Below are positions 4,623 to 25,505 of a stretch of DNA of 64,000 nucleotides, piece after piece. This DNA is from a virus: UHGV virus genome UHGV-0305822. One strand, 5' to 3'. The position numbers and the translations under genes were made by a program. Every line of letters starts with the position of its first letter. The stretch's first letter is position 1. The notes beneath the pieces were generated by a model. The model was not told where the DNA came from, searched no databases, and worked only from the letters and a program-made list of their open reading frames with translations.

Positions 4623-5012
4623 ATGCGTCTCGTCTGCGTTTTAGCATTCTTCTTCTCCCTGAGTGTAGCAGCATCTACTCAAGTTAACGATTTACTGCTA
4701 ACCCCAAACAACAATACCGATTACCAGTACAATCCTCCGGGGTTTGAAGTTTGTGAAGTCGGTGAAACAATCTGCCAAGAAGTCGGCGCAGACGGGCGCT
4801 ATATTCTGGTAAAAGCTGATGGTGGCACAATGTGTCCCGCAGGTTATTACTTTCTGCTCGATTCCGTCGCAAGAGAGGTTCTTCCTATCACCACGAAAAC
4901 GTGCGACCCTACCGTTGTCTTAACTCTCGCTAAAAGCAAATCTCGCGACCGTTACCTGATCGTTATCGAAGAACGGGGCAAGATGGCTGGTGCTATCGAA
5001 TTAGATCATTGA
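4623..5012 (+). CDS. small secreted Cys-containing protein
   Basis: signal-like N-terminus MRLVCVLAFFFSLSVAAS; SD taaggag. Confidence 0.7.
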   Translation: MRLVCVLAFFFSLSVAASTQVNDLLLTPNNNTDYQYNPPGFEVCEVGETICQEVGADGRYILVKADGGTMCPAGYYFLLDSVAREVLPITTKTCDPTVVLTLAKSKSRDRYLIVIEERGKMAGAIELDH

Positions 5013-5022
5013 GTGTAGTCTT

Positions 5023-5049
5023 GGCCCCGATACGTTCGGGGTCCTTTTT
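5023..5049 (+). terminator. intrinsic terminator
   Basis: ggccccgatacgttcggggtcc hairpin followed by ttttt. Confidence 0.65.
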
Positions 5050-5078
5050 ACGACATGTTTACCTAAAGGAGTATTAAA

Positions 5079-5555
5079 ATGCAATTATCTAACGTTTACC
5101 AAGCTGCGCAATTTCATCATGACCTGTCGGCTAAACCTGAACAAATTCGCCACAACTTAACGGTGGCCTGGAAACTGCTGCGTATCGCCGAAGCCTCGCG
5201 CCTTAACGATCAGTCGACGATTATCGAAACGGTGCGCACACTACATCCAGTCGACCTGGAAACAATCTGGACCTTTGATTTAACCCGAATTTATCACCGT
5301 CGTTTTAATGCGGCAGTTGATGCGATCCGTCCTTACTTTCACCACCTGCGAACAACACGCGAAAATGACACCGCACTTGAGTGGGTATTGGTACAAAGCG
5401 TATGGAGCGACTACATTTATCTCCTTTCTTTAGAGACGGGTGAATGTATCGTTGCTAACGAAGTTTTTTCAAGTAACGCAGAAATGTATCGTTCCTTCGC
5501 GACGATTAAAGGTGAAACACAACCTATTTTATCACTCACGCACTTAGGGCTGTAA
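5079..5555 (+). CDS. hypothetical protein
   Basis: 158-aa ORF with SD cctaaaggagtattaaaATG. Confidence 0.65.
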   Translation: MQLSNVYQAAQFHHDLSAKPEQIRHNLTVAWKLLRIAEASRLNDQSTIIETVRTLHPVDLETIWTFDLTRIYHRRFNAAVDAIRPYFHHLRTTRENDTALEWVLVQSVWSDYIYLLSLETGECIVANEVFSSNAEMYRSFATIKGETQPILSLTHLGL

Positions 5556-5557
5556 TT

Positions 5558-5591
5558 AGCCCGGCCCCGTTTACTCGGGGCTTCTTTTTTT
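5558..5591 (+). terminator. intrinsic terminator
   Basis: gccccgtttactcggggc hairpin followed by ttcttttttt. Confidence 0.6.
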
Positions 5592-5611
5592 GATCTAAAA
5601 GGAAAGACCAG

Positions 5612-6220
5612 ATGAACGAAATTACATTAGTTCGTTTTCTTGAAGCGATGCAAAATGCAGAGCGCTTTTCGCATACGCCTTTATTCATTGACTTAATGGA
5701 AGAAGAAGTAGAGGGCTTCCTGGCATACCCACGCTTACGGGAATATTTTAAACGCAAAACACCGACTGCTTACGAAAAGTTGGTTTACGCGCTTGAAAAC
5801 AGTACAACACTGTTAACGTCGCCTTTTAAGGCGTTGGAGGCTTTAGACCCGGCTGGTACCACAAGTATCCCACAACGTGTTGTGTTCTACTATATCGACC
5901 ACGATCGAATTAAAGCCGATGTTGTTAACTGGATCTCTGAAAACGCAGTTCCTGAAACACGCACTTTTAATCTCTGTCCCGTAGAAGAAGGGTGGAAGGT
6001 CGGTAGCCACTATTCTTACCCGTACCAATCCATTAAATCGCCGTTTTTATACCCGGTTTATCTGGATGATGTTACACCTGGAAATTGTATCCCGGTAACA
6101 AATCTGATCTGTACATTGACAATGGAAGTCTTAGCCACAAAGGCGGGACAGGTTTGGGTAGAAAACACGAAGAACGTCGATTATTGGACTTCAATGGGTT
6201 ATCACCTGTACACCAAATAA
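5612..6220 (+). CDS. hypothetical protein
   Basis: 202-aa ORF; SD aaaggaaag. Confidence 0.65.
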   Translation: MNEITLVRFLEAMQNAERFSHTPLFIDLMEEEVEGFLAYPRLREYFKRKTPTAYEKLVYALENSTTLLTSPFKALEALDPAGTTSIPQRVVFYYIDHDRIKADVVNWISENAVPETRTFNLCPVEEGWKVGSHYSYPYQSIKSPFLYPVYLDDVTPGNCIPVTNLICTLTMEVLATKAGQVWVENTKNVDYWTSMGYHLYTK

Positions 6221-6298: not shown

Positions 6299-8803
6299 AT
6301 GCTAAAAGTTGAACGCATTATACTCAAAGGTTTTACGGGGATGGGGTTACATGAAATTGAAACCTTCGATTTCACTATCCAGTCTCCAACAACAATTATC
6401 CTGGGTGGGAACGGCTGCGGGAAAACCAGTCTACTGTCTGTGTTCTTACCCTTAGCACCGGCTAAAACCGAATTTAGGGACGGCGGTTCTTACACAAACT
6501 ACTGTTTAGTTGGCGATCAACGCTATCGATTCAAAGTTGCCCGTAAAGGCAACTCTTTGGTTTGTGATATTGAGAACTTGACCACGGGGACAAAGATCGT
6601 CGAGCAAGGTAATGCGAAAGTCTACAACTCCCGTGTTGAAGAAATCACGGGTATTACGAAAGAGATTAAAGAACTATTAAATGGTGAGGTGTTGTTAACC
6701 GATGCGGGAACCGAATTACGCCGCAAATGGTTTTACCGTTTAAGTACCTCTGACCTCACTTACGCGTTAGGGTTTTATCAGCGTTTACGTAAAAACCTTA
6801 CTGCCTTAAATGGGGGTATTGAAATCACCAGCCGCAAGATCGCCGAATTACGGACGCGTGTTATTGAGAACGAGGAAGAACGGCAGCAGTTAGCGACGAG
6901 ATTAAAAGGTTTGGAATCGGATTTACGTGAACTGAACCGAGAAATCGAACAGTTGCCAGGATTAAATCGTGCCGTCACCATCGAAACAATCCAAGCGTTA
7001 TTAAACAGCTTGGGCCCAACCATCGACGCAATATTACAACATCGTGGTGGCCTGCCTACTGATGAACAGATACTGACCGCGCGACAAAACGAAGCTACGG
7101 CCCGCGAAGCTGTCGTGTCTACTGAAACAGAGGTATCGATGTTGAATAAAGACTTGTCGTTATTAATGGATGAGTCGACACGACAAGACTACCTGATGCG
7201 GAATCACGAAGGTCTCAAGAATACGCTGGCACGTTTACGTGAGTTACTTACCAAATGGGACACCGAACATCTCTTTCCGGGTCTATTTAACGACAACATC
7301 AATTTAGACCAACTTCGTGCGGCTACAGATGCGCGTGTTTGGGGGCAACGGTTGGGAACAACACTAGACGCAATTCATTCAACCGAAAAACTTAACGTTT
7401 TGGAAGAACGACTTCTGGTGATGGATCAAAAAACCGCAGGGATGCGGGATAGACTCCAGCGAGTGGAGAACGTTTTACAGAATTTAAATCACGAACGTAA
7501 TCACTACTTAGAAACAGCGGAAGTGGATTGCCCGCAGTGTCGGTTTAAGTTTCGGCCCGGTGTTACGCGTTCTTTACCTGAACTTGAGTCTTCGATTCGC
7601 GGACAACAACAGCAGCGCACGGAACTGCAAACACAGTTAGAGGCCCTATTACGCGATCGTGTTGAATTAGAATCTGATGTAACTTATATGCGGCAGGTTC
7701 GTGAGATTGTACTGACGTATTCAAAGGACCCGGTATTGAGCATGTTCTTTAAGCGTTTGCAAGAACGTAACGTTTTCACAGAATCACGCGAACAGTTCGG
7801 GAGTCTATGCGCAGCGTTTGACAGTGAGTTGTACTCTGCTATTGAGTACCATGAAACCCGACAACGGTTAGTGAAGGCGGAAAAAGAATGGCAGGATGCC
7901 GTAGCGGCCGTTGGTAACGTCGATGGTGCTTTACAACAGAAAATCGCCTTCCAACAGTCACGATTAGGTAAAGCCACAGAAATGCTCTCAATGCGTCGTA
8001 GAGAGCACGAACTGGCTAACACGACACTTACCTATCTGGTGAATGTTAAACGTGCTGTAGATGATTTCAGTGCGTTATTCGAACGGTTAGAGAGTGATGT
8101 TAAGGTTACGTTGACAAATACGGTCGTCGAGGAACTCTTACGTGCACGAGAAGGGAAGCTGGATGCTTTTACAACCGCACGCGAACGTTATCGTCAGATG
8201 GAAAATGAATTGAATCAGCTCAACAGTTTGGAACGCGAACTTGCTGACTTACAAGCCCAGCAGTTCAATAACAAACTGATGATTCAAGCCTTCTCGCCAG
8301 AAAAGGGTGTACTTAGAAAGTATTTTTACAACGCTATCGTTAGAATCACAGAGTTAATGACGCGTTATATCGAACAAGTCTGGACGTACCCCATGCGCGT
8401 TATGCCTTGTGACCTCACTGACGGCGATTTGGATTATACTTTTCCTGTCCAGCTAAAAACGCATCCTGAGCCTGTTCCTGACGTGCGTAAAGGGTCTAAG
8501 GCGCAGCGTGCGATATTTAATCTGATGTTCAGGCTGACCGCGTACAAAGCGCTGAAGTTGCATCAGTTTCCGTTGCTTTTGGATGAGCCTTCGGAAGGCA
8601 TGGATGAGGAGCACCGTAACAACCTGGTCGGCTTTATTAAAACGTTAGCAAACTCGGGAGAATTTTCTCAACTGTTGGTAGTCTCCCACGAAGCCGAGGT
8701 TCATTCTAAACTTAATGAAGCATCGTACTGTGTCATCGAACCGGAAGGGGTGACATTGCCTGCGGTGTATAACGAAGGAGTAAAAATTGTTTATGCAAAC
8801 TGA
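6299..8803 (+). CDS. SbcC/Rad50-like recombination ATPase (SMC-like)
   Basis: Walker A GGNGCGKTS at 6404..6430; long coiled-coil-like middle; CPQC zinc-hook-like motif at 7529..7540; Walker B LLLDEPSEGMD and VVSHEAE near C-terminus. Start moved to ATG 6299 (MLKVERI) after ggaggt, because the track start at 6224 sits inside the upstream terminator. Confidence 0.7.
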   Translation: MLKVERIILKGFTGMGLHEIETFDFTIQSPTTIILGGNGCGKTSLLSVFLPLAPAKTEFRDGGSYTNYCLVGDQRYRFKVARKGNSLVCDIENLTTGTKIVEQGNAKVYNSRVEEITGITKEIKELLNGEVLLTDAGTELRRKWFYRLSTSDLTYALGFYQRLRKNLTALNGGIEITSRKIAELRTRVIENEEERQQLATRLKGLESDLRELNREIEQLPGLNRAVTIETIQALLNSLGPTIDAILQHRGGLPTDEQILTARQNEATAREAVVSTETEVSMLNKDLSLLMDESTRQDYLMRNHEGLKNTLARLRELLTKWDTEHLFPGLFNDNINLDQLRAATDARVWGQRLGTTLDAIHSTEKLNVLEERLLVMDQKTAGMRDRLQRVENVLQNLNHERNHYLETAEVDCPQCRFKFRPGVTRSLPELESSIRGQQQQRTELQTQLEALLRDRVELESDVTYMRQVREIVLTYSKDPVLSMFFKRLQERNVFTESREQFGSLCAAFDSELYSAIEYHETRQRLVKAEKEWQDAVAAVGNVDGALQQKIAFQQSRLGKATEMLSMRRREHELANTTLTYLVNVKRAVDDFSALFERLESDVKVTLTNTVVEELLRAREGKLDAFTTARERYRQMENELNQLNSLERELADLQAQQFNNKLMIQAFSPEKGVLRKYFYNAIVRITELMTRYIEQVWTYPMRVMPCDLTDGDLDYTFPVQLKTHPEPVPDVRKGSKAQRAIFNLMFRLTAYKALKLHQFPLLLDEPSEGMDEEHRNNLVGFIKTLANSGEFSQLLVVSHEAEVHSKLNEASYCVIEPEGVTLPAVYNEGVKIVYAN

Positions 8804-18274: not shown

Positions 18275-19795
18275 ATGAAGAACGTTGATGTTGCAGTAAT
18301 TTACACGGATGGTAGCCATTTGACCTCCCCGCTCGGTACAGGAGCGGGGATTCATGGATACTTATTTAATCGTGAAGCGATTGAGGATGGTCGGGTTTAC
18401 CGCCATCCCTCTATTCCCGAGGGGATTACGACGTCAGGATACCGCCAGATAAACAAGGATGAAAAACTTCCACCTTTACCAGAAACCGTGGAGTTTATTG
18501 ACGGCGTTGTGCCTGTACCAAAAATGTCACACTCCGACGTTGCAGAACTCGTGGCTTTCCTGACCGTCTTCGAACACGCACCTTTCGTTGCCAAAAACTA
18601 TGTTATCTATATCGATGCCTCTTACGTTGTCAACACGTATAACGATTGGATTGATGGTTGGGCTGCACGCGGCTGGCGTCGTGCAGACGGTACGCCTATT
18701 GCGAACTTGGAATTAATCCAACGGATGTGGGAAGTTAAACAGCGGTTAAAGAAAGAAGGGAAAGGTATCCGTGTCCTTAAAATTAAAGGGCATTCAGGAC
18801 GCTATGGAAACGAGCGTGCCGACGAGTTAGCACGGAAAGGTTCAAGTATTTCGGCTCGAGGTGATGGGTTAGACTATACACCGTATTGGTCAAAAGACGA
18901 GATGCCTGAGGAAGAACAGCAACCAGAAGTTGTTGGTGAAGGTGTCAATTTGTCTGCTTTTCCCGATATCTGTGTTACGAAGTTCTGTTACCCGATGGTG
19001 AACGAACCGCATCCCACTGTTACAGTTAACGGTAATAAACTTTATTACATGTTCGGTGGGAACCATGCAAAACAGAAGGACGATATCGTCTTCGTTGGTA
19101 AGTACATTCCAGATGCACAATTCTGCGTAATGTTTACCAAAGAACCATGGAACAACGTATACGAGTTGGTAAATACCCACTCTGCGAAAGCGTGGGAAGG
19201 GGTGCCCCGTTTACGTCAGTTTGATCCCATCGCCGTTGTTTTTAACTTATTCGTAAAACGTAAGAAGTTCGCAGAAGCCGCAGGTAACGGTATTCCTGTC
19301 GATCGGATGCATTTTAGCGAAGACAAAAACCTGTGGATGTTTGAAGATCTTTCGATTACACGAATTCTTCGTCCCGCGTTATTGTCTTATCGCTGCATTA
19401 CGATTCGTGATGAGCTTGCAGGTTGGTTACGCGATGCCATGGAGGGGAAAAACTCAGTCGTAATGAACGACATTACTGACCTGCTTTACGATGAGAAAGG
19501 TAAGCCGAAGAAAGACTTTTATCGTAACGTAGATAAAGGTTTTGACGTAACCATCCATATCCCTGGTAGCAAAAACAAGGTTAAAACCATCCTTACTCGA
19601 GGTATCGACATACCGACGCGTACGGAAATCAACCGTATGAAAGAACCAGAAGGACGATTCTACGTGGCGGTAAGGCGTCCAGAACGGCAGTATATCGAAT
19701 ATGCGTTGGTTTATATTGGGGAAAAATATCATGGGTTGTGGTGTGGCTATTATTCAAACAAACGAATATTGACGGATAAGGAGCTTGAATGCTGA
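18275..19795 (+). CDS. RNase HI-domain protein with a roughly 300-aa C-terminal extension
   Basis: N-terminal 190 aa carry RNase HI motifs IYTDGS, DASYV, WAARGWRRADGTPIANLEL and IKGHSGRYGNERADELA. Confidence 0.8.
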   Translation: MKNVDVAVIYTDGSHLTSPLGTGAGIHGYLFNREAIEDGRVYRHPSIPEGITTSGYRQINKDEKLPPLPETVEFIDGVVPVPKMSHSDVAELVAFLTVFEHAPFVAKNYVIYIDASYVVNTYNDWIDGWAARGWRRADGTPIANLELIQRMWEVKQRLKKEGKGIRVLKIKGHSGRYGNERADELARKGSSISARGDGLDYTPYWSKDEMPEEEQQPEVVGEGVNLSAFPDICVTKFCYPMVNEPHPTVTVNGNKLYYMFGGNHAKQKDDIVFVGKYIPDAQFCVMFTKEPWNNVYELVNTHSAKAWEGVPRLRQFDPIAVVFNLFVKRKKFAEAAGNGIPVDRMHFSEDKNLWMFEDLSITRILRPALLSYRCITIRDELAGWLRDAMEGKNSVVMNDITDLLYDEKGKPKKDFYRNVDKGFDVTIHIPGSKNKVKTILTRGIDIPTRTEINRMKEPEGRFYVAVRRPERQYIEYALVYIGEKYHGLWCGYYSNKRILTDKELEC

Positions 19796-20457
19796 TCGTT
19801 TATAGTGAGGTCTTGTCAAAAGCCCCTCGGTTTTTACAAACTCACTTTATGTATAACGCACGGCAGTATTGGGGCTTTAAAGCCCCTTACTCCGAAGATT
19901 GGGAAGTTGTGGAAAAGTTAGCATTTGTGTTTTCTCTTTCGTTGTTGTGGGAGATCATTGCACTATACAACGCAGGTTGTGATATCCCGGAGAACGGCTT
20001 TTTCCAACAACACCTATTCCAAAAATTCACAGCATCGGTAGAAAATCATGAAGTGCGCAAGGAGTGTATCGGCTACGCCGAGCATTCTGAAGAATTGAGA
20101 AAGATTTCCAAATTAGTTATCACGCGGACATGGGCTGAATTCGAAACTTACCCCGAAAAAATAATTTGGTTTAATCGTGAACAGTTTATTAAAGAGGCAG
20201 TCAGTCAACATCCCGTTCGATTAATCGTGTTAAAGCCGTCCGATCTCGCCTTACGCCACACCTATTCGTCTCCAGAGGAAATCGTTTTTTCCTCTGGAAC
20301 AACAGATTATGGTATTTTTAAACAAGGAGATTCTTGGATTCTTCCACACGATTTAGACGGGTATTTGCTCAGTAGCGATCAAATACATTCGGGTTATGAC
20401 TCACAGGTGAAGGAGTTTACAGTCGATCCTTTTTTCGCTAAAAATATTCTTAGATAG
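19789..20457 (+). CDS. hypothetical protein
   Basis: 222-aa ORF overlapping upstream stop by 7 nt; SD aaggag. Confidence 0.55.
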   Translation: MLIVYSEVLSKAPRFLQTHFMYNARQYWGFKAPYSEDWEVVEKLAFVFSLSLLWEIIALYNAGCDIPENGFFQQHLFQKFTASVENHEVRKECIGYAEHSEELRKISKLVITRTWAEFETYPEKIIWFNREQFIKEAVSQHPVRLIVLKPSDLALRHTYSSPEEIVFSSGTTDYGIFKQGDSWILPHDLDGYLLSSDQIHSGYDSQVKEFTVDPFFAKNILR

Positions 20458-20475
20458 ATATTATCCAGGTGTAAC
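20449..20475 (+). promoter_or_regulatory. candidate phage promoter element, copy C (CTTAGATAGATATTATCCAGGTGTAAC)
   Basis: overlaps the stop codon of the upstream gene; about 20 nt upstream of ATG 20494. Confidence 0.3.
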
Positions 20476-20493
20476 ACCATTGGAGTTATTAAA

Positions 20494-21231
20494 ATGCTAA
20501 AAGTTTATGTCCCTCAATTACAACGTATCAATCCCTCGTTGTTCGAGGGAATCTTTTATAAAATTTGGCCGCAATACTTCAATGAACATTTGAAGGACCC
20601 AAAGTGGTCAACCGTACAAGGAGAATTCTTTTATACCGCACAGACTGCCTGCACAAACGTCTTTACTCGTCTCATCGCTGAAGTTATTGAGGGCGTCAAT
20701 ACCAACCGAAACTTTGACCTTCGCGACGTCATAATAGATCTCTCAGGGGTCTTCGATAACTACGATTGTGATGACGCCGTATTCGAGCATTTCTCTTCTG
20801 AGGATGTCTGGGAAGCCGTTTATCAATGGCTAGAATACTACGTGAACTTTCTACTCTCTCCAGAGATGTTAGAAAGTTTCAATAAAGCACTCTACCCCAT
20901 TTATAACGACTTAATGAACGTTAAACGGACAAAGAACCTCGTCGGTTTCTGGTTTTCGATTTACGACGCCGAAAGCAGATTGTGGGAAAAAGAAATGATT
21001 GCTTTTGGTATCGAGCGCGGTGATTACGACGAATTGTATCGCGGTTATTGGCCCTTCGATCATCGTGAAAACAGTTGTCAAGGCAATCCGTACTTGTGGT
21101 CTTTTTATTTCTGTAATCAGACTGGTGTTATTTATCTTGAAGACGCTGGCGTACAAATCCCTAACGGTGCTGACGTAACATACTGCCAGTTACGTAAAGA
21201 CCGTGACGACATCATTTATCAGGGCTATTAA
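20494..21231 (+). CDS. hypothetical protein
   Basis: 245-aa ORF; SD ggagttattaaaATG. Confidence 0.6.
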   Translation: MLKVYVPQLQRINPSLFEGIFYKIWPQYFNEHLKDPKWSTVQGEFFYTAQTACTNVFTRLIAEVIEGVNTNRNFDLRDVIIDLSGVFDNYDCDDAVFEHFSSEDVWEAVYQWLEYYVNFLLSPEMLESFNKALYPIYNDLMNVKRTKNLVGFWFSIYDAESRLWEKEMIAFGIERGDYDELYRGYWPFDHRENSCQGNPYLWSFYFCNQTGVIYLEDAGVQIPNGADVTYCQLRKDRDDIIYQGY

Positions 21232-21232
21232 C

Positions 21233-21775
21233 ATGAAAATACTTATCGATTTCTCACTCAGTGAGTCACGGGGCAAATTAAACAAACTGTTAAGTGGGAT
21301 GCGTAGCCGCGTTGCGTTTGAACTGCACGACGCGATAGCAGTACATGAGAACAAGATTTCTGAAGAACACAGTGGGGTCGAAATTACTATCCTGGATTCA
21401 GAAGCGATGGTGAATAATCTCATTGAACAGTTAGAGCGAAAAATCCATTCGGCCATGACATACCCACATTTGGTGCGGGTAACTGATCCCGATACGGATA
21501 TTCACCTGATTCTTGAGAAAGCCTTTCTACATGCCGCGCATTACTTACAGAATAATGCTCCAGATACCCTCGATGAAGTGTATGTCGCCATATTGCAGCG
21601 ACAATCTTCAACGACGGATATAATAGACACAACGTGTTGGAGCGATATTCTTACCAACGAAACAATGTCCCGTATCCGGGATATTTTCCTTGAGACACTC
21701 GGGTTAGTTGAGAAAATCTGCCATGCCGAGCTCATCTACCTGTCATCAAAATACGGTCAACCTAAAGGAGTATAA
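21233..21775 (+). CDS. hypothetical protein
   Basis: ATG 21233 (MKILIDF) immediately after upstream stop; track ORF starts at 21203. Confidence 0.5.
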   Translation: MKILIDFSLSESRGKLNKLLSGMRSRVAFELHDAIAVHENKISEEHSGVEITILDSEAMVNNLIEQLERKIHSAMTYPHLVRVTDPDTDIHLILEKAFLHAAHYLQNNAPDTLDEVYVAILQRQSSTTDIIDTTCWSDILTNETMSRIRDIFLETLGLVEKICHAELIYLSSKYGQPKGV

Positions 21776-21777
21776 TC

Positions 21778-22302
21778 GTGGATATTTTAATTCAGCTTCG
21801 TAAGAAAACAACCATTGCCACACCGATAGCGCTAGAGGAGAAAATCTCTGGCGCAGTTGCACGCAAGCTCTGTGGTGCTCATGGCTTTAGCGACCATCAG
21901 GAGCGGGTCGTTACTGTCGCCACATTACACAACTTACGTCACACAGTGCATTACTGTTTAGTTGACAACGTCACCATCACTCTTGATGATAACGTAAATG
22001 TCGACCAACTGCGACGCGAAATTGTCCACAAGATCGAGGCTTACAATAGACGTTTCGATCGGGCGTGTACGCGTTTAACTAATGACGAGGCACTACGAAA
22101 ACGTTTGAAACTTGAAATCGAATATGCAGCGCAACGATACGGGATTGGCGGTACCGAACCGTGTCTGACTGAACAAGAAATCACGTTAGCAATTGAGGTT
22201 TATACCACTCTCTGTTGCGCCATCCTAAAAGAGACCAACCACGAAATTACAAAAGCGTTGTTAAACACCGCAGACAAACTCTCCCCAATTTTAGGACAAT
22301 AA
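21778..22302 (+). CDS. hypothetical protein
   Basis: 174-aa ORF, GTG start after cctaaaggagtataatc. Confidence 0.55.
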   Translation: MDILIQLRKKTTIATPIALEEKISGAVARKLCGAHGFSDHQERVVTVATLHNLRHTVHYCLVDNVTITLDDNVNVDQLRREIVHKIEAYNRRFDRACTRLTNDEALRKRLKLEIEYAAQRYGIGGTEPCLTEQEITLAIEVYTTLCCAILKETNHEITKALLNTADKLSPILGQ

Positions 22303-22303
22303 A

Positions 22304-22792
22304 ATGAACGTAAATGATATTATCAATCTTAGTAAAAGTGATATTGTGCACGAATTTCTCAATCACGGTGCGCGTGTAAGAAAAGAAATTGAAGAAAAGT
22401 TGACCCCAATGGTTGCTTCCACTCCTTGGATGGCAGGATACGCCGCTGCCTACTTCAGTTGCCAGAGCGGAAAAGCATACATAGCTAACCTGTTTGATTT
22501 CTTCAATCCATCAAACGACCACATAACAGAAACAGACGTTCGACAACGCCTTCGCGATTGCCGGTATCAGTTCTTAAGAAATGTTACTGATGCGTACAAT
22601 TTAGAGCAATTTCCTACACCGATTGTTCCCTATACAGAACCGGAATGGGAAAATTTTTATAGACGAATTTGGATTGGTGGGTCTTACGTGGCAGATATAA
22701 TGGAAATCATCGAACGTAGTGAAAACCAACTTGCTCTGCAACTATGGGAGTGGTTAAAAGCTAATTATCCTGATTACGTCAAAATCGACTAA
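22304..22792 (+). CDS. hypothetical protein
   Basis: 162-aa ORF directly following the upstream stop. Confidence 0.6.
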   Translation: MNVNDIINLSKSDIVHEFLNHGARVRKEIEEKLTPMVASTPWMAGYAAAYFSCQSGKAYIANLFDFFNPSNDHITETDVRQRLRDCRYQFLRNVTDAYNLEQFPTPIVPYTEPEWENFYRRIWIGGSYVADIMEIIERSENQLALQLWEWLKANYPDYVKID

Positions 22793-22796
22793 TACA

Positions 22797-22830
22797 CACC
22801 CTAGCTTCGGCTAGGGTTACTTTATTTTTA
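22797..22830 (+). terminator. intrinsic terminator
   Basis: ccctagcttcggctaggg hairpin followed by ttactttattttt. Confidence 0.65.
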
Positions 22831-22851
22831 ACCATTTTAGGAGAATAAACC

Positions 22852-23778
22852 ATGTATTTGTACAAAAGTAAAAAAGTAAAAGGTATTAAAGACTGCCTTA
22901 GACAAATGGGGTCTCAGCATCTTGAAAATGTCATGGAAGAAAACCGAATAAAGGAAAATCCTGTCTCGAAATGGATAAAAAAGAATCGTAACCATTTAAC
23001 CAATGCCTTTATACCTTACGACGCTGAGTTAGGTCTCAAAGATCCCCGTTCCCTTCACGCACAAACATTGGCAATTGGATGGCTATACGGTGGTGCTTCC
23101 TTAATATCCAACCAAGCACTTAGAGAACTTGTTTTCGAGACTGAGATGCCCAGTAAATTCCCTGAAGAATGGTTGGACTTTATACCTACTTGGACTGTGG
23201 CAATCGACGTAGGTAAAGAGGATGAGACTTTCTTTCTCGGCTATCGAAAAAACGGGAAGAGAAGGTTTATCATAATTGCCACAAATACTGATTACGGGTT
23301 AACAGAAGGCGTTACCACAATTGCCACTTGTTCGTTAGAGCTTCGTAGTGCAGGGAACGGGCTTGTGGAAATCGACTATGCCGACGGTGTGGAAAACGAA
23401 CAAGAAAAGATGTTGTGGTTATCTCTGGCCAAAGCCGCCACTTCGATGATATTTCTGTGCACGCTAATCCCGCCTAACTACAGGGAGACTTTTAATGATA
23501 TTAAGTTCAAGGAAATCAAAAAGAACGGTAGTATTAGTTACGACGTTAAACCTCGTGAACGCGATGTTAAGATAGATATCACGCCAGGACAAGTGAATTA
23601 TCTAAAAGGGTTTAACACTGACTTGAAAACCATGCAGGGTATCAAACATGCTAAGGCTGCCCACATCCGTCGCGCACACTGGCGCAGATATTGGGTCGGC
23701 CCTAGAAATGGTGAAAGAAAGAGAAAACTTTGTTGGATTCCACCTACCTTTGTCCGTGGCTACGTACCCCACAATTAA
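22852..23778 (+). CDS. hypothetical protein, tandem paralog family (C-terminal HIRRAHW motif)
   Basis: 308 aa; C-terminus AAHIRRAHWRRYWVGP...WIPPTFVRGY resembles the next ORF. Confidence 0.65.
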   Translation: MYLYKSKKVKGIKDCLRQMGSQHLENVMEENRIKENPVSKWIKKNRNHLTNAFIPYDAELGLKDPRSLHAQTLAIGWLYGGASLISNQALRELVFETEMPSKFPEEWLDFIPTWTVAIDVGKEDETFFLGYRKNGKRRFIIIATNTDYGLTEGVTTIATCSLELRSAGNGLVEIDYADGVENEQEKMLWLSLAKAATSMIFLCTLIPPNYRETFNDIKFKEIKKNGSISYDVKPRERDVKIDITPGQVNYLKGFNTDLKTMQGIKHAKAAHIRRAHWRRYWVGPRNGERKRKLCWIPPTFVRGYVPHN

Positions 23779-23802
23779 GCTAAAGTGTTTAGGAGTATTA
23801 AA

Positions 23803-24702
23803 ATGACAACGAATAATAGACTTTACGGGAAAGCGCTAAGACGCATGAGTGAACAAATAGAAAAGGCACACCAAACAATTCACGGATTAGATCAGTGTCG
23901 CTTTATTCGGTTCATTAACGAGCATAAACGTCAAATACCCGTAACGTTTATGCCAGTTAAAGATCCGACCTATCGTGAGTATGGCGTTACCGAACAGATT
24001 CCCAGACTGATTAAGCAGTCTCTGGGACTAGGATGGCAATACGCTGCTGTTGAAATCATCTCGGATGAAGAACTGATGGCGCTCTTAGCAAAAACTGAGA
24101 GACTAAAAAATATCCCGTACTTCTGGATAGAAACCATCCCTTCATTTACTTTCTCGGTTACTGTAAATCTCGACGAATGTCCAATCACGTTATTTATCGG
24201 AAGACGTCTTTACGAAGGTGAAGAAGTTCTCTTTGTGATGTCATGCGAAGAACATGACGAGTCGGTATACATGGAGTTTGAGATTTACACGATCGATAAA
24301 AGTAATGATGATTTCGTGGAGTTAAAGCCGCTCCTTACTTCGGTTAAGGAGAATCAACGACTACTCGACGCCGTCTATATCGGGCTATATCTTTCATCAC
24401 GAATTAAGCGAACCGAACGCGAGAAGAAAGAATTTCGCGGAAGGTCCATTCGTTATGTTCCTGATACAGAAATTCGCCCACGTAGTGAAGCAGTCGTTTT
24501 AGATGTAAGTCCGGTACAATGGGAAGATATAGAGCAGCAACGCAAGGAAGGACACGAGGTTTGTTTGGCGATTTATTGTGCCGCACATATCCGTCGTGCG
24601 CATTGGAAGCGTGTATGGTGTGGTAAAATGTCAGAAATGCGCTGGCGCGAATGGCGATGGATAGCGCCGAGTTACATTTCTGGATTTTATCGTGGGAAAT
24701 AA
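23803..24702 (+). CDS. hypothetical protein, tandem paralog of 22852..23778
   Basis: ATG 23803 after tttaggagtattaaa; C-terminus AAHIRRAHWKRVWCG...WIAPSYISGFY; shared LGWxY motif near N-terminus. Confidence 0.65.
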   Translation: MTTNNRLYGKALRRMSEQIEKAHQTIHGLDQCRFIRFINEHKRQIPVTFMPVKDPTYREYGVTEQIPRLIKQSLGLGWQYAAVEIISDEELMALLAKTERLKNIPYFWIETIPSFTFSVTVNLDECPITLFIGRRLYEGEEVLFVMSCEEHDESVYMEFEIYTIDKSNDDFVELKPLLTSVKENQRLLDAVYIGLYLSSRIKRTEREKKEFRGRSIRYVPDTEIRPRSEAVVLDVSPVQWEDIEQQRKEGHEVCLAIYCAAHIRRAHWKRVWCGKMSEMRWREWRWIAPSYISGFYRGK

Positions 24703-24705
24703 ATA

Positions 24706-24760
24706 GTTTACCCCTAGACCGTGTGGTCTAGGGGTAACTTTACTTTTTTTTATTTTTTGT
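24706..24760. terminator. bidirectional intrinsic terminator
   Basis: ttacccctagaccgtgtggtctaggggtaa hairpin followed by a long T-run; the minus gene ends at 24750. Confidence 0.6.
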
Positions 24761-25505
24761 TTGCCTTAAGCGCTTTTAAGCGTTCGGCAGTAACGTTCAG
24801 GCATTCGATTAACTCGTTAACCTGTTTCATGAACAGACCAAACAGCTCCACCCAATCGGACGCAAAATCTAACATCATCGTCAGTTCTTTTGCTACATTC
24901 GGATGAATGTTTTGTTCAGACAAGATTTCCGACGTAGTGCGAATGGACTCGATTGACTTGTCGATGTTCGTCCGTAAACGTTTCGTAATTTCAACGTTCA
25001 GGGCTTTAGCACGATTGAACGCAACGTCAATCTCAGACGCGCTGTGGTACGTCTTCTCAATTGGTCGCTGGTCAATAACGTTATTAGTGTACGATTTCGC
25101 TAATAAGTTAACCAGGTCTTTCGGGTTAACATTACGTAACGGCAAATTAACGTTTTTATAACGGAAACCAATCGGTAATGACAGTACCCCCACATCATGT
25201 GTAAGGGCCGAAAGTTGTTTATCGACCGGCAGCAGAATACCCGTATAGATGTTTTGTAGTGAACTCCATACGGATTCTAAGCGGTTCAAGTGATCCATCA
25301 CGTAGGTATTAAACCCAGGTGGGACGATAACCAACATTCCCGCAAAGTGTAGGAATTTTTCTTGTTGCATCCACTTGGAAACGTCCGACATCTCGTCATA
25401 AGTGGTTAATGCAATCTCTTGTTGAGGGCCGCTAAACCCTTTCGGTAAGATTGCAGACGCTTTAGCGGCGAAGCTAGATAACGCTGCAAGTGGATTTACA
25501 TTCAT
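24750..25505 (-). CDS. hypothetical protein
   Basis: 251-aa minus-strand ORF; SD gaggt upstream on the minus strand. Confidence 0.6.
   Translation of the reverse strand: MNVNPLAALSSFAAKASAILPKGFSGPQQEIALTTYDEMSDVSKWMQQEKFLHFAGMLVIVPPGFNTYVMDHLNRLESVWSSLQNIYTGILLPVDKQLSALTHDVGVLSLPIGFRYKNVNLPLRNVNPKDLVNLLAKSYTNNVIDQRPIEKTYHSASEIDVAFNRAKALNVEITKRLRTNIDKSIESIRTTSEILSEQNIHPNVAKELTMMLDFASDWVELFGLFMKQVNELIECLNVTAERLKALKANKK

Follow-up and report, generated by a model that had tools for sequence, protein, structure and literature searches.

Two diverged tandem members of the AcrVA2/FinQ family in an accessory phage gene cassette

A co-oriented gene pair between two terminator hairpins

The window analyzed here (64,000 nucleotides of the virus genome UHGV-0305822) encodes phiKZ-type split RNA polymerase beta subunits, UvsX, RNase H, and a giant tail protein, and is syntenic with the genome of Erwinia phage Asesino. 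The source is a phiKZ-like jumbo phage of the nucleus-forming type, related to Asesino and to Salmonella phage SPN3US. A megablast search with a 4-kb region of the window returned no match among cultured phages; the lineage is uncultured. Hosts of its cultured relatives are Erwinia, Salmonella, E. coli, and Dickeya.

Between gp234-like and gp236-like genes, upstream of UvsX, we found two co-oriented genes, here termed A and B, flanked by two terminator hairpins (Table 1). An initial annotation made from the sequence alone had reported both open reading frames and described them as a tandem paralog pair forming its own unit between terminators. That description held up: the reading frames lie where reported, both hairpins match the terminator consensus in a scan, and BLASTP aligned A with B over 277 residues (24% identity, E=1e-20). 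The similarity spans the whole length of the proteins and is not limited to a low-complexity stretch at the C-terminus, with 43% identity in the C-terminal module, 31% around a shared tryptophan motif, and 12-17% elsewhere (12% in the central domain); the alignment and the regional values together rule out low-complexity or chance similarity. The motifs by which the pair had been recognized are present in both proteins, as LAIGWLYGG and AAHIRRAHWRRYWVGPRNGERKRKLCWIPPTFVRGY in A and as LGLGWQYAA and AAHIRRAHWKRVWCGKMSEMRWREWRWIAPSYISGFY in B.

For B, the mechanical ORF call uses a GTG start at 23785 and gives 305 residues. We consider the downstream ATG listed in Table 1 to be the most likely start codon; an AGGAG lies closely upstream of it, and the resulting protein has the same length as P0004, a relative of B with 98% identity and 299 residues.

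Table 1 Features of the A/B cassette (window coordinates).
Feature	Position	Strand	Description
Upstream intrinsic-terminator-like hairpin	22798..22830	+	ACCCTAGC-TTCG-GCTAGGGT, then T-run; 5' cassette boundary
Shine-Dalgarno AGGAG of A	22839..22843	+	8 nt 5' of ATG; segment TTTTAACCATTTTAGGAG kept in L002 and L005
Paralog A	22852..23778	+	308 aa, AcrVA2/FinQ family; clades with single-copy Asesino gp235
Codon of A W77 ("GWxY" motif)	23080..23082	+	Equivalent of AcrVA2 W79
Central beta-sheet domain of A	23212..23397	+	Residues 121-182; most variable part
C-terminal module of A	23638..23766	+	Residues 263-305; HIRRAHW at 23662-23682
Shine-Dalgarno AGGAG of B	23791..23795	+	7 nt 5' of ATG 23803
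Paralog B	23803..24702	+	299 aa from ATG 23803; AcrVA2/FinQ family, more divergent copy
Central beta-sheet domain of B	24166..24351	+	Residues 122-183; most variable part
C-terminal module of B	24562..24690	+	Residues 254-296; HIRRAHW at 24586-24606
Bidirectional terminator	24708..24760	.	TTACCCCTAGACC-GTGT-GGTCTAGGGGTAA, 13-bp stem; 3' cassette boundary

The upstream hairpin has an 8-bp stem (22798-22817) followed by a T-run to about position 22830; both elements are kept in relatives, with a different stem sequence in L005, and the hairpin is one of only two of the form CCCTAG...CTAGGG in the window. The downstream hairpin (stem 24708-24737) lies between B and a convergent gene at 24750-25505 on the minus strand and is bidirectional, since T-runs are present on both strands. 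Homologues of it are found in L002, L005, and Asesino, and in SPN3US and phiEaH2 such a homologue is the sole hairpin in the otherwise empty slot. A scan detected no sigma-70 promoter between the upstream hairpin and the ribosome-binding site of A. A conserved 18-mer 5' of A has just one further occurrence in the window, with 3 mismatches, which is not enough to designate it a phage promoter. Expression of A and B may rely either on a promoter of their own or on read-through of the upstream hairpin.

Membership in the AcrVA2/FinQ family

The family of the two proteins had initially gone unrecognized. Homology and fold searches now place both, as diverged members, in the described AcrVA2/FinQ family, Pfam PF26125 ("AcrVA2-like"); this family was already known, and the pair defines neither a new family nor a new mechanism. 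The initial annotation had itself named placement in a characterized family by homology search as an outcome that would refute its reading. PF26125 is a precomputed assignment on the cluster representatives, which are 95-98% identical. P0001-P0005, with 63-98% identity to A or B, carry it as well, as do the two copies in L002 and those in L005. A family profile of 37 sequences matched AcrVA2 in the PDB (7ci1) over its full length with E=2.7e-34 (profile positions 15-299 of 305, chain residues 12-317 of 323), and the family HMM matched the FinQ ORF with E=9e-55. In a search of six-frame ORFs with hmmsearch, A and B were the only two copies of the family in the 64 kb.

Links to the two named members differ in strength along the protein. 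By hhalign, a profile built from jumbo-phage sequences only aligned with plasmid FinQ at 98.2% (E=4e-14, 220 columns) and with AcrVA2 at 95.7% (E=1e-8, 192 columns). By hmmsearch, the same profile matched AcrVA2 over the C-terminal ~76 residues only (E=7.7e-5), and the N-terminal ~80-100 residues are tied to AcrVA2 solely through intermediate sequences and the predicted fold. Both paralogs also matched phrog_6160 (E=4e-36 and 1e-19). The Pfam set that we scanned does not include PF26125 and leaves AcrVA2 and FinQ themselves unmatched, and its empty results for A and B are hence uninformative. NCBIfam and PADLOC scans gave nothing useful, and we dismissed as noise two weak matches of B, to AAA_19 (E=0.24) and Csx19 (E=0.011).

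The AlphaFold models of A and B are confident (pLDDT 80-81), and their only convincing structural relative is AcrVA2, whose three-domain fold was matched in Foldseek with E=2.2e-10 and a probability of 1.00, at a TM-score of only about 0.4 for these predicted models and a structure-based identity of about 10%. In the literature that we searched, we found no published tie of Asesino gp235/phrog_6160 to AcrVA2 or FinQ. BLAST-level anti-CRISPR surveys of chimallin-positive phages missed the AcrVA2/FinQ family in the Asesino and SPN3US-like phage groups.

The strongest conservation lies at the C-terminus. In AcrVA2, H286, R288, and H291 are needed for down-regulation of cas12a mRNA and protein and not for target binding (Marino et al., bioRxiv 10.1101/2022.11.29.518452). 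These residues align with H271/R273/H276 of A and H262/R264/H267 of B, and the histidine, arginine, and histidine are invariant in all 37 aligned family members. On this alignment we equate the HIRRAHW block with the family's H-x-R-x-x-H effector motif. The basic, aromatic C-terminus had initially been read as fitting nucleic-acid binding; the last 45 residues are indeed strongly basic (pI 11.8 in A and 10.6 in B), but the block matches the conserved effector motif instead, and structure searches detected no DNA- or RNA-binding fold in either protein.

Two further AcrVA2 positions can be followed in the N-terminal part. The W79A and D89A mutations each cause a moderate loss of AcrVA2 activity (Marino et al., bioRxiv 10.1101/2022.11.29.518452). 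The tryptophan is retained, as W77 in A and as W78 in B, and the D89 position holds D88 in B and N87 in A, with aspartate in 26 of the 37 family members.

An accessory slot with fast-evolving genes

The initial annotation had suggested looking at the distribution of the pair across related phages, and the slot proved to hold zero, one, or two copies. SPN3US and phiEaH2 have no copy at this position, and Asesino is among the phages with one, the gene being single-copy in every cultured phage that carries it; Asesino and phiEaH2 differ in occupancy within one genus. Each of the nine other loci from the lineage that cover this position has two copies, at 63-99% identity. The pair is an accessory and dispensable two-gene cassette bounded by terminators. 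A search of the six neighboring proteins detected no HTH or Aca-like domain. We rejected a structural role for A and B, because SPN3US and phiEaH2 do without the gene and the sole structural relative is AcrVA2. In a neighbor-joining tree, the A clade joins the clade of single-copy proteins from cultured phages (79% bootstrap) and B falls outside, a topology that would fit an ancient duplication whose B copy was later lost in other phages, or else faster evolution of B.

Both genes change faster than their surroundings. Amino acid identity to lineage L002 is 70% for A and 63% for B, against 84-97% for most of the conserved neighbors, and identity to Asesino is 29% for A and 25% for B, against 60-86% for the downstream neighbors. 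Divergence is concentrated in the central domain: orthologs of A share 44% identity there and 100% in the C-terminal module, and the corresponding values for B are 42% (to P0005) and 72%. Alleles of A and B are reassorted between genomes. Pairwise Nei-Gojobori dN/dS, for which dS is saturated in the distant lineage, is 0.03-0.19 gene-wide, which argues that both genes are functional; the highest value, 0.31, is that of the central domain of A, and these pairwise estimates give no gene-wide signal of positive selection. Fast evolution and a slot with zero, one, or two copies fit a conflict or accessory gene. The earlier suggestion of arms-race genes is supported in these two respects, but not by pairwise dN/dS.

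These data bear on two rival readings. Dispensability in many relatives and rapid divergence could mean that A and B are neutral or decaying duplicated accessory ORFs without current function. We give this negligible weight: both ORFs are intact with good ribosome-binding sites, dN/dS is low, the catalytic-type motif is invariant in A and B, the pair is kept in the nine other loci of its lineage that cover both genes, and both models are confident. Alternatively, the presence/absence polymorphism at an otherwise syntenic slot, the repeated hairpins that flank the cassette, and the mosaic alleles recall selfish mobile genes such as free-standing homing endonucleases, in which the His/Arg-rich C-terminus would be a DNA nuclease site. 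The chance of this is slim, since we found no match to HNH, GIY-YIG, LAGLIDADG, or other nucleases in Pfam, PHROGs, NCBIfam, or PADLOC, and since no DNase activity has been reported for AcrVA2, the sole convincing structural relative, which also fails to block DNA cleavage in vitro. Purifying selection combined with a hypervariable central domain also fits a target-recognition protein better.

A candidate role in mRNA silencing and its precedents

AcrVA2 is an anti-CRISPR of a Moraxella bovoculi prophage that brings about translation-dependent destruction of cas12a mRNA, and the contacts to the Cas12a peptide lie in its central domain (Marino et al., bioRxiv 10.1101/2022.11.29.518452; PDB 7CI1/7CI2). 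The mRNA loss requires the start codon of the target and the peptide that it encodes, whereas the nucleotide sequence itself is not needed, and an H286A mutant of AcrVA2 traps Cas12a. We propose, with a probability of about 0.6, that A and B each recognize a nascent peptide and silence the mRNA that encodes it, with different targets other than Cas12a, as the two genes of a dispensable phage cassette. By analogy with AcrVA2, each protein would act at translating ribosomes in the cytoplasm, where its variable N-terminal and central domains would bind a short peptide of one nascent protein and the invariant basic C-terminal H-x-R-R-x-H-W module would then set off loss of that protein's mRNA; the analogy extrapolates across the low structure-based identity given above. 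The central domain of A is a candidate target-recognition surface. Because A and B have a common effector module and only 12-17% identity elsewhere, they most likely silence two different targets, for which host defence or stress proteins and proteins of rival mobile elements are candidates. In Asesino infections a phage nucleus forms and the host DNA stays intact (PMC11724907), a setting in which selective silencing is plausible.

The shared family, fold, and essential motif also raise the question of whether A and B are bona fide type V-A anti-CRISPRs that recognize Cas12a and remove its mRNA, and AcrVA2-like proteins of huge phages have been listed as candidate anti-CRISPRs (Al-Shayeb et al. 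2020, PMC7162821). In AcrVA2, the interface with the Cas12a 620-636 peptide is non-essential and an N-terminal LSKT peptide is also bound; the majority of family members are reported from settings that lack Cas12a (Marino et al., bioRxiv 10.1101/2022.11.29.518452). Two contacts to the 620-636 peptide, D129 and D195, lie in insertions that are missing from all 13 jumbo-phage sequences, the position of a third contact, E98, holds glutamate in A and lysine in B, and beyond the C-terminus there is next to no identity to AcrVA2. The hosts of the cultured relatives are Enterobacterales (Erwinia, Salmonella, E. coli, Dickeya), which are not known to carry Cas12a. We detected no Aca-like HTH gene beside the pair, and nucleus-forming phages already evade DNA-targeting CRISPR. 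Cas12a is thus very unlikely as a target, and we hold the prospect that A and B are type V-A anti-CRISPRs to be very slim.

FinQ suggests a different coupling. In this alternative, A and B would cause Rho-independent premature termination or mRNA loss in particular operons of a rival element in the same cell, be it a plasmid, a prophage, or a co-infecting phage, with no need for translation of the target. One account describes FinQ as a factor that terminates transcription, not as one coupled to translation, and places multiple termination sites in tra transcripts (PMC8744291, citing Ham & Skurray 1989). The jumbo-phage subfamily is nearer to FinQ than to AcrVA2 in the hhalign comparison, the conjugative plasmids that carry FinQ come from E. 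coli and Salmonella, in line with the hosts of the cultured relatives, and the strongly basic C-terminal module is compatible with nucleic-acid contact. However, the reported FinQ effect, a drop in tra mRNA, would follow just as well from the AcrVA2 mechanism (Marino et al., bioRxiv 10.1101/2022.11.29.518452), and no nucleic-acid-binding fold was found in A or B. This alternative, which we judge unlikely though deserving of attention, is largely a sub-variant of the nascent-peptide silencer model, with the same family and a different coupling.

AcrVA2 is so far the sole bacterial protein known to select one nascent polypeptide and destroy its mRNA, and ~1,800 of its homologs occur outside Cas12a hosts (Marino et al., bioRxiv 10.1101/2022.11.29.518452). 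The locus adds family members in tractable phage groups, namely Asesino and the SPN3US-like phages of Erwinia, Salmonella, and E. coli, and it offers a natural pair in which one effector module is combined with very different recognition domains and reassorted alleles, useful for mapping specificity determinants. It also hints that nucleus-forming phages with shielded DNA still invest in cytoplasmic, post-transcriptional countermeasures. More tentatively, in nucleus-forming jumbo phages that spare the host chromosome, AcrVA2/FinQ-like proteins might be swappable silencers of host or rival-element genes that act on cytoplasmic nascent chains, with specificity set by the hypervariable central domain and with a cassette that diversifies by duplication, allele shuffling, and loss at a hot spot between terminators. 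If so, A and B would be a single scaffold with two naturally occurring specificities, comparison with the reassorted alleles (L002, L009-L013) could yield the recognition code of a programmable, peptide-addressed mRNA decay, and the targets of A and B would be new anti-jumbo-phage defence proteins.

Among known systems, AcrVA2 resembles A and B in its length (about 300-320 aa), in its layout of a helical N-terminal, a beta-rich central, and a small beta C-terminal domain, in the conserved W79 equivalent and H286/R288/H291, and in being encoded on a mobile element. It differs in that structure-based identity to A and B is only about 10%, direct sequence similarity begins only after the first ~100 residues, and the insertions with D129 and D195 are absent from the pair. 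A and B also form a diverged tandem pair in a lytic jumbo phage with a probable Enterobacterales host, without an adjacent AcrVA1-like partner or Aca, whereas AcrVA2 is encoded in a Moraxella prophage.

FinQ, which inhibits fertility and is encoded by conjugative plasmids of the IncI1 and related types in E. coli and Salmonella, is a member of this family too. It has a HIRRGHW-type C-terminus and likewise has a role in conflict between mobile elements. Its homologs in PLSDB are on conjugative plasmids in 559 of 594 cases, whereas A and B are phage-borne; it is single-copy and longer (a 363-aa ORF with extra C-terminal residues), and its N-terminal ~90 residues are not alignable with A or B. 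Its known target, the F tra operon (PMC8744291), would have no relevance in a lytic phage, except if A and B act on plasmid or prophage functions. Closest to the pair is Asesino gp235/phrog_6160: although single-copy in cultured phages and annotated only as hypothetical proteins, these are true orthologs that occupy the same slot, with 25-29% identity to A and B.

Family assignment of the tandem paralogs

The two adjacent open reading frames described in the initial annotation, A and B, are both present, carry the motifs quoted there, and are flanked by terminators that each match the consensus. The encoded proteins align over 277 residues with 24% identity (BLASTP, E=1e-20), which rules out a low-complexity artefact as the source of their similarity. 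The C-terminal modules share 43% identity, the regions around GWxY 31%, and the remaining parts 12-17%. The ATG is most likely the true start of B, because of its AGGAG spacing and the lengths of relatives (299 and 294 aa; P0004, 98% identical to B, has 299 aa). With this start the A-B gap is 24 nt, consistent with co-transcription. The downstream terminator is common to B and a convergent gene (24750-25505, minus strand). We found no third copy of the family within the 64-kb window.

Coordinates of the paralog pair and its flanking terminators
Feature	Coordinates	Strand	Description
Paralog A	22852-23778	+	308 aa; AGGAG at 22839-22843 upstream
Paralog B, mechanical ORF	from GTG 23785	+	305 aa
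Paralog B, likely ORF	23803-24702	+	299 aa; ATG 23803, AGGAG at 23791-23795, 7 nt upstream
Upstream terminator	22798-22817		8-bp stem, then T-run
Downstream terminator	24708-24737		13-bp stem, T-runs on both strands

Elsewhere in the window, another hairpin (2347-2392) is followed by AAAACCATTTTAGGAG and an ATG, resembling the hairpin-spacer-RBS layout upstream of A, and an 18-mer from the region upstream of A matches 2366-2383 with 3 mismatches. The layout may represent a post-terminator context, for translation initiation or as a promoter, that recurs in this phage.

The family, not recognized in the initial annotation, proved to be one already described, with a Pfam entry, a crystal structure, and an earlier report on huge phages. 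In local curated libraries, the sole match of A and B was phrog_6160 (function unknown; E=4e-36 and 1e-19). A phmmer search of PDB sequences with A matched AcrVA2 (7ci1), an anti-CRISPR from a Moraxella bovoculi prophage, through the C-terminal block (E=6.5e-5), aligning HIRRAHWRRYWVG...WIPPTFV of A with HIRRGHWHGYWQG...WQPAVFV of AcrVA2. An exhaustive representative search returned 302 clusters at E≤1e-3, mostly of 300-380 aa with the match at the extreme C-terminus, and a 37-sequence profile matched AcrVA2 over essentially its full length (E=2.7e-34). As a stricter control we used a profile of 13 jumbo-phage sequences alone, which matched only the last ~76 residues of AcrVA2 in hmmsearch (E=7.7e-5); in hhalign it aligned with AcrVA2 over 192 columns (95.7%, E=1e-8) and with the plasmid fertility-inhibition protein FinQ over 220 columns (98.2%, E=4e-14). 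AcrVA2 and FinQ are themselves homologous (tblastn: 25% identity, 90% of query, E=3e-11), with tblastn matches in 594 plasmids, mostly conjugative.

Pfam PF26125, named 'AcrVA2-like' in contig annotation, is annotated on five close relatives of A or B (P0001-P0005) and on each member of the pair in two related loci (L002 and L005). Our local Pfam scan of A and B was empty but uninformative, since AcrVA2 and FinQ were also unmatched in it; the local Pfam-A copy either lacks PF26125 or cannot detect it. The analysis establishes the family, fold, and motif of A and B, and we assign both to the AcrVA2/FinQ family with very high confidence.

A slot with zero, one, or two copies

The window belongs to a phiKZ-type jumbo phage, with split RNAP beta subunits, a UvsX-like recombinase, RNase H, SbcC, and a 2374-aa tail protein; no near-identical cultured phage was found for it. 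Gene order is as in Erwinia phage Asesino (gp234, gp235, gp236 on the minus strand, gp237, UvsX gp238), but Asesino has a single AcrVA2-like gene, gp235, in place of two. In every cultured phage with an AcrVA2-like gene, A and B both match its one locus. The conserved gp236-like neighbor occurs in 62 phage records, only 10 of which carry an AcrVA2-like gene. In SPN3US and phiEaH2, the latter of the same genus as Asesino, the flanking genes adjoin with a hairpin alone between them. The tandem pair is kept in 9/9 other position-spanning loci of the window's uncultured lineage (L002, L003, L005, L009-L013; longest contigs 220-225 kb). The slot therefore holds 0, 1, or 2 copies.

The 64 kb contain exactly two hairpins with a CCCTAG...CTAGGG stem, at 22799-22816 and 24712-24733, one to each side of A and B (0 expected by chance). 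Near-copies of the TACCCACTCC...GGAGTGGGTA hairpin lie on both flanks of Asesino gp235 (~5810-5840 and ~6810-6840 of locus L001), and the empty slot of SPN3US and phiEaH2 (L007 and L008) holds one copy (~4760-4810). It looks as if the cassette is gained and lost by recombination between the repeated terminators. We consider it very unlikely that A and B are selfish homing-type genes.

Just upstream of the pair, a 162-aa gene (22304-22792) for which no family match was found is hypervariable, with 44% identity between the window and L002 (5457-5942) and 46-67% between the window and L009 and L012; L005 has two diverged paralogs of it in tandem (4941-5426 and 5456-5941; 28%, E=6e-22). The behavior of the 22.3-24.7 kb stretch as a whole is that of an accessory island. 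Across 19789-22302, small genes alternate between conserved and fast-evolving relative to L002: 19789-20457 and 21203-21775 are 58% and 61% identical, and their neighbors 84-89%. The second of these has a below-threshold DUF1904 match (E=6e-4).

Domain-specific divergence and reassortment

Identity to the L002 counterparts is 70% for A and 63% for B, with most conserved neighbors at 84-97%; to the Asesino protein it is 29% for A and 25% for B, with downstream neighbors at 60-86%. Among orthologs, the C-terminal module is 100% conserved in A and 72% in B, and the central beta-sheet domain 44% and 42%. Pairwise dN/dS is 0.03-0.19 gene-wide, reaching 0.31 in the central domain of A, and dN runs at 4-6 times the level in conserved neighbors. 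A and B are therefore functional and under constraint, and are almost certainly not non-functional duplicates. Their fast change is concentrated in the domain that carries the peptide-binding pocket in AcrVA2. The analysis establishes the accessory status of A and B and their pattern of variable recognition with a constant effector.

In two loci (L011 and L013), A is of the window type (94%) and B of the L002 type (62%), and in two others (L009 and L012) identity to the window is 91-92% for A and 97-99% for B; A/B alleles are thus reassorted among phage genomes of ~220 kb that are otherwise related. Within A, dS between these four loci and the window is 0.09-0.26 over codons 1-120 and abruptly 0.75-0.89 over codons 121-262, suggesting a mosaic gene. 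Together, the reassortment and the abrupt dS shift indicate recombination inside the cassette. A neighbor-joining tree groups the A clade with the clade of single-copy genes from cultured phages (79% bootstrap), with B outside this grouping, reflecting either an old duplication or accelerated evolution of B.

Proposed action and comparison with AcrVA2 and FinQ

AcrVA2 binds Cas12a at the nascent N-terminal peptide (LSKT motif) and causes translation-dependent loss of cas12a mRNA; H286A, R288A, and H291A abolish down-regulation with binding kept, and W79A and D89A each make the protein less active (Marino et al, bioRxiv 10.1101/2022.11.29.518452). The same study reports the homolog FinQ on E. 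coli plasmids and ~1,800 orthologs carried by mobile elements, 'including plasmids and megaphages', with hosts that are mostly bacteria without Cas12a, and leaves the route of mRNA destruction unexplained; a 2026 review counts the mechanism among unresolved ones (PMC13131331).

We mapped these residues onto A and B (PDB SEQRES index = published number + 1). H286, R288, and H291 correspond to H271, R273, and H276 of A and H262, R264, and H267 of B, and are invariant in 37/37 aligned sequences. W79 corresponds to W77 of A and W78 of B (W in 35/37), and D89 to N87 of A and D88 of B (D in 26/37). The basic C-terminal motif, for which the initial annotation had suggested nucleic-acid binding, is thus the family's effector motif.

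We propose that the variable N-terminal and central domains of each paralog would recognize a peptide of one given nascent protein, and that the invariant H-x-R-R-x-H-W module would then trigger loss of that protein's mRNA. The targets of A and B would be different, non-Cas12a proteins, for instance host defense proteins, host stress proteins, or proteins encoded by rival elements. We give this extrapolation a probability of roughly 0.55-0.6. Selective post-transcriptional silencing would be sensible for a phage with shielded DNA while the host chromosome stays intact; Asesino forms a nucleus, as shown by experiment, and leaves host DNA undegraded (PMC11724907; PMC13282480), in reports that do not mention gp235.

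The presence of AcrVA2-like proteins in huge phages has been noted before (Al-Shayeb et al, 2020; PMC7162821). A pangenome survey of chimallin-positive jumbo phages found no verified Acr by BLASTp at >30% identity (PMC11448039), a threshold that would be too strict to detect this family. In the literature searched we found no report of the family in Asesino/SPN3US-type phages, and its presence there is a new, though modest, finding. The observations that the tandem pair has diverged, that repeated terminators bound a hot spot with 0, 1, or 2 copies, and that variation is domain-specific are likewise new.

In AcrVA2, the Cas12a 620-636 peptide is contacted by D129 and D195, which fall within insertions specific to AcrVA2; no jumbo-phage sequence has these insertions. 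A and B lack the Cas12a-specific surface, and it is extremely unlikely that they are genuine Cas12a anti-CRISPRs, despite their kinship to AcrVA2. By published account, FinQ lowers F tra transcripts or terminates them (PMC8744291), and a FinQ-style action on transcription, an unlikely but appreciable possibility for A and B, would essentially be a sub-variant of the proposed nascent-peptide-directed mRNA loss.
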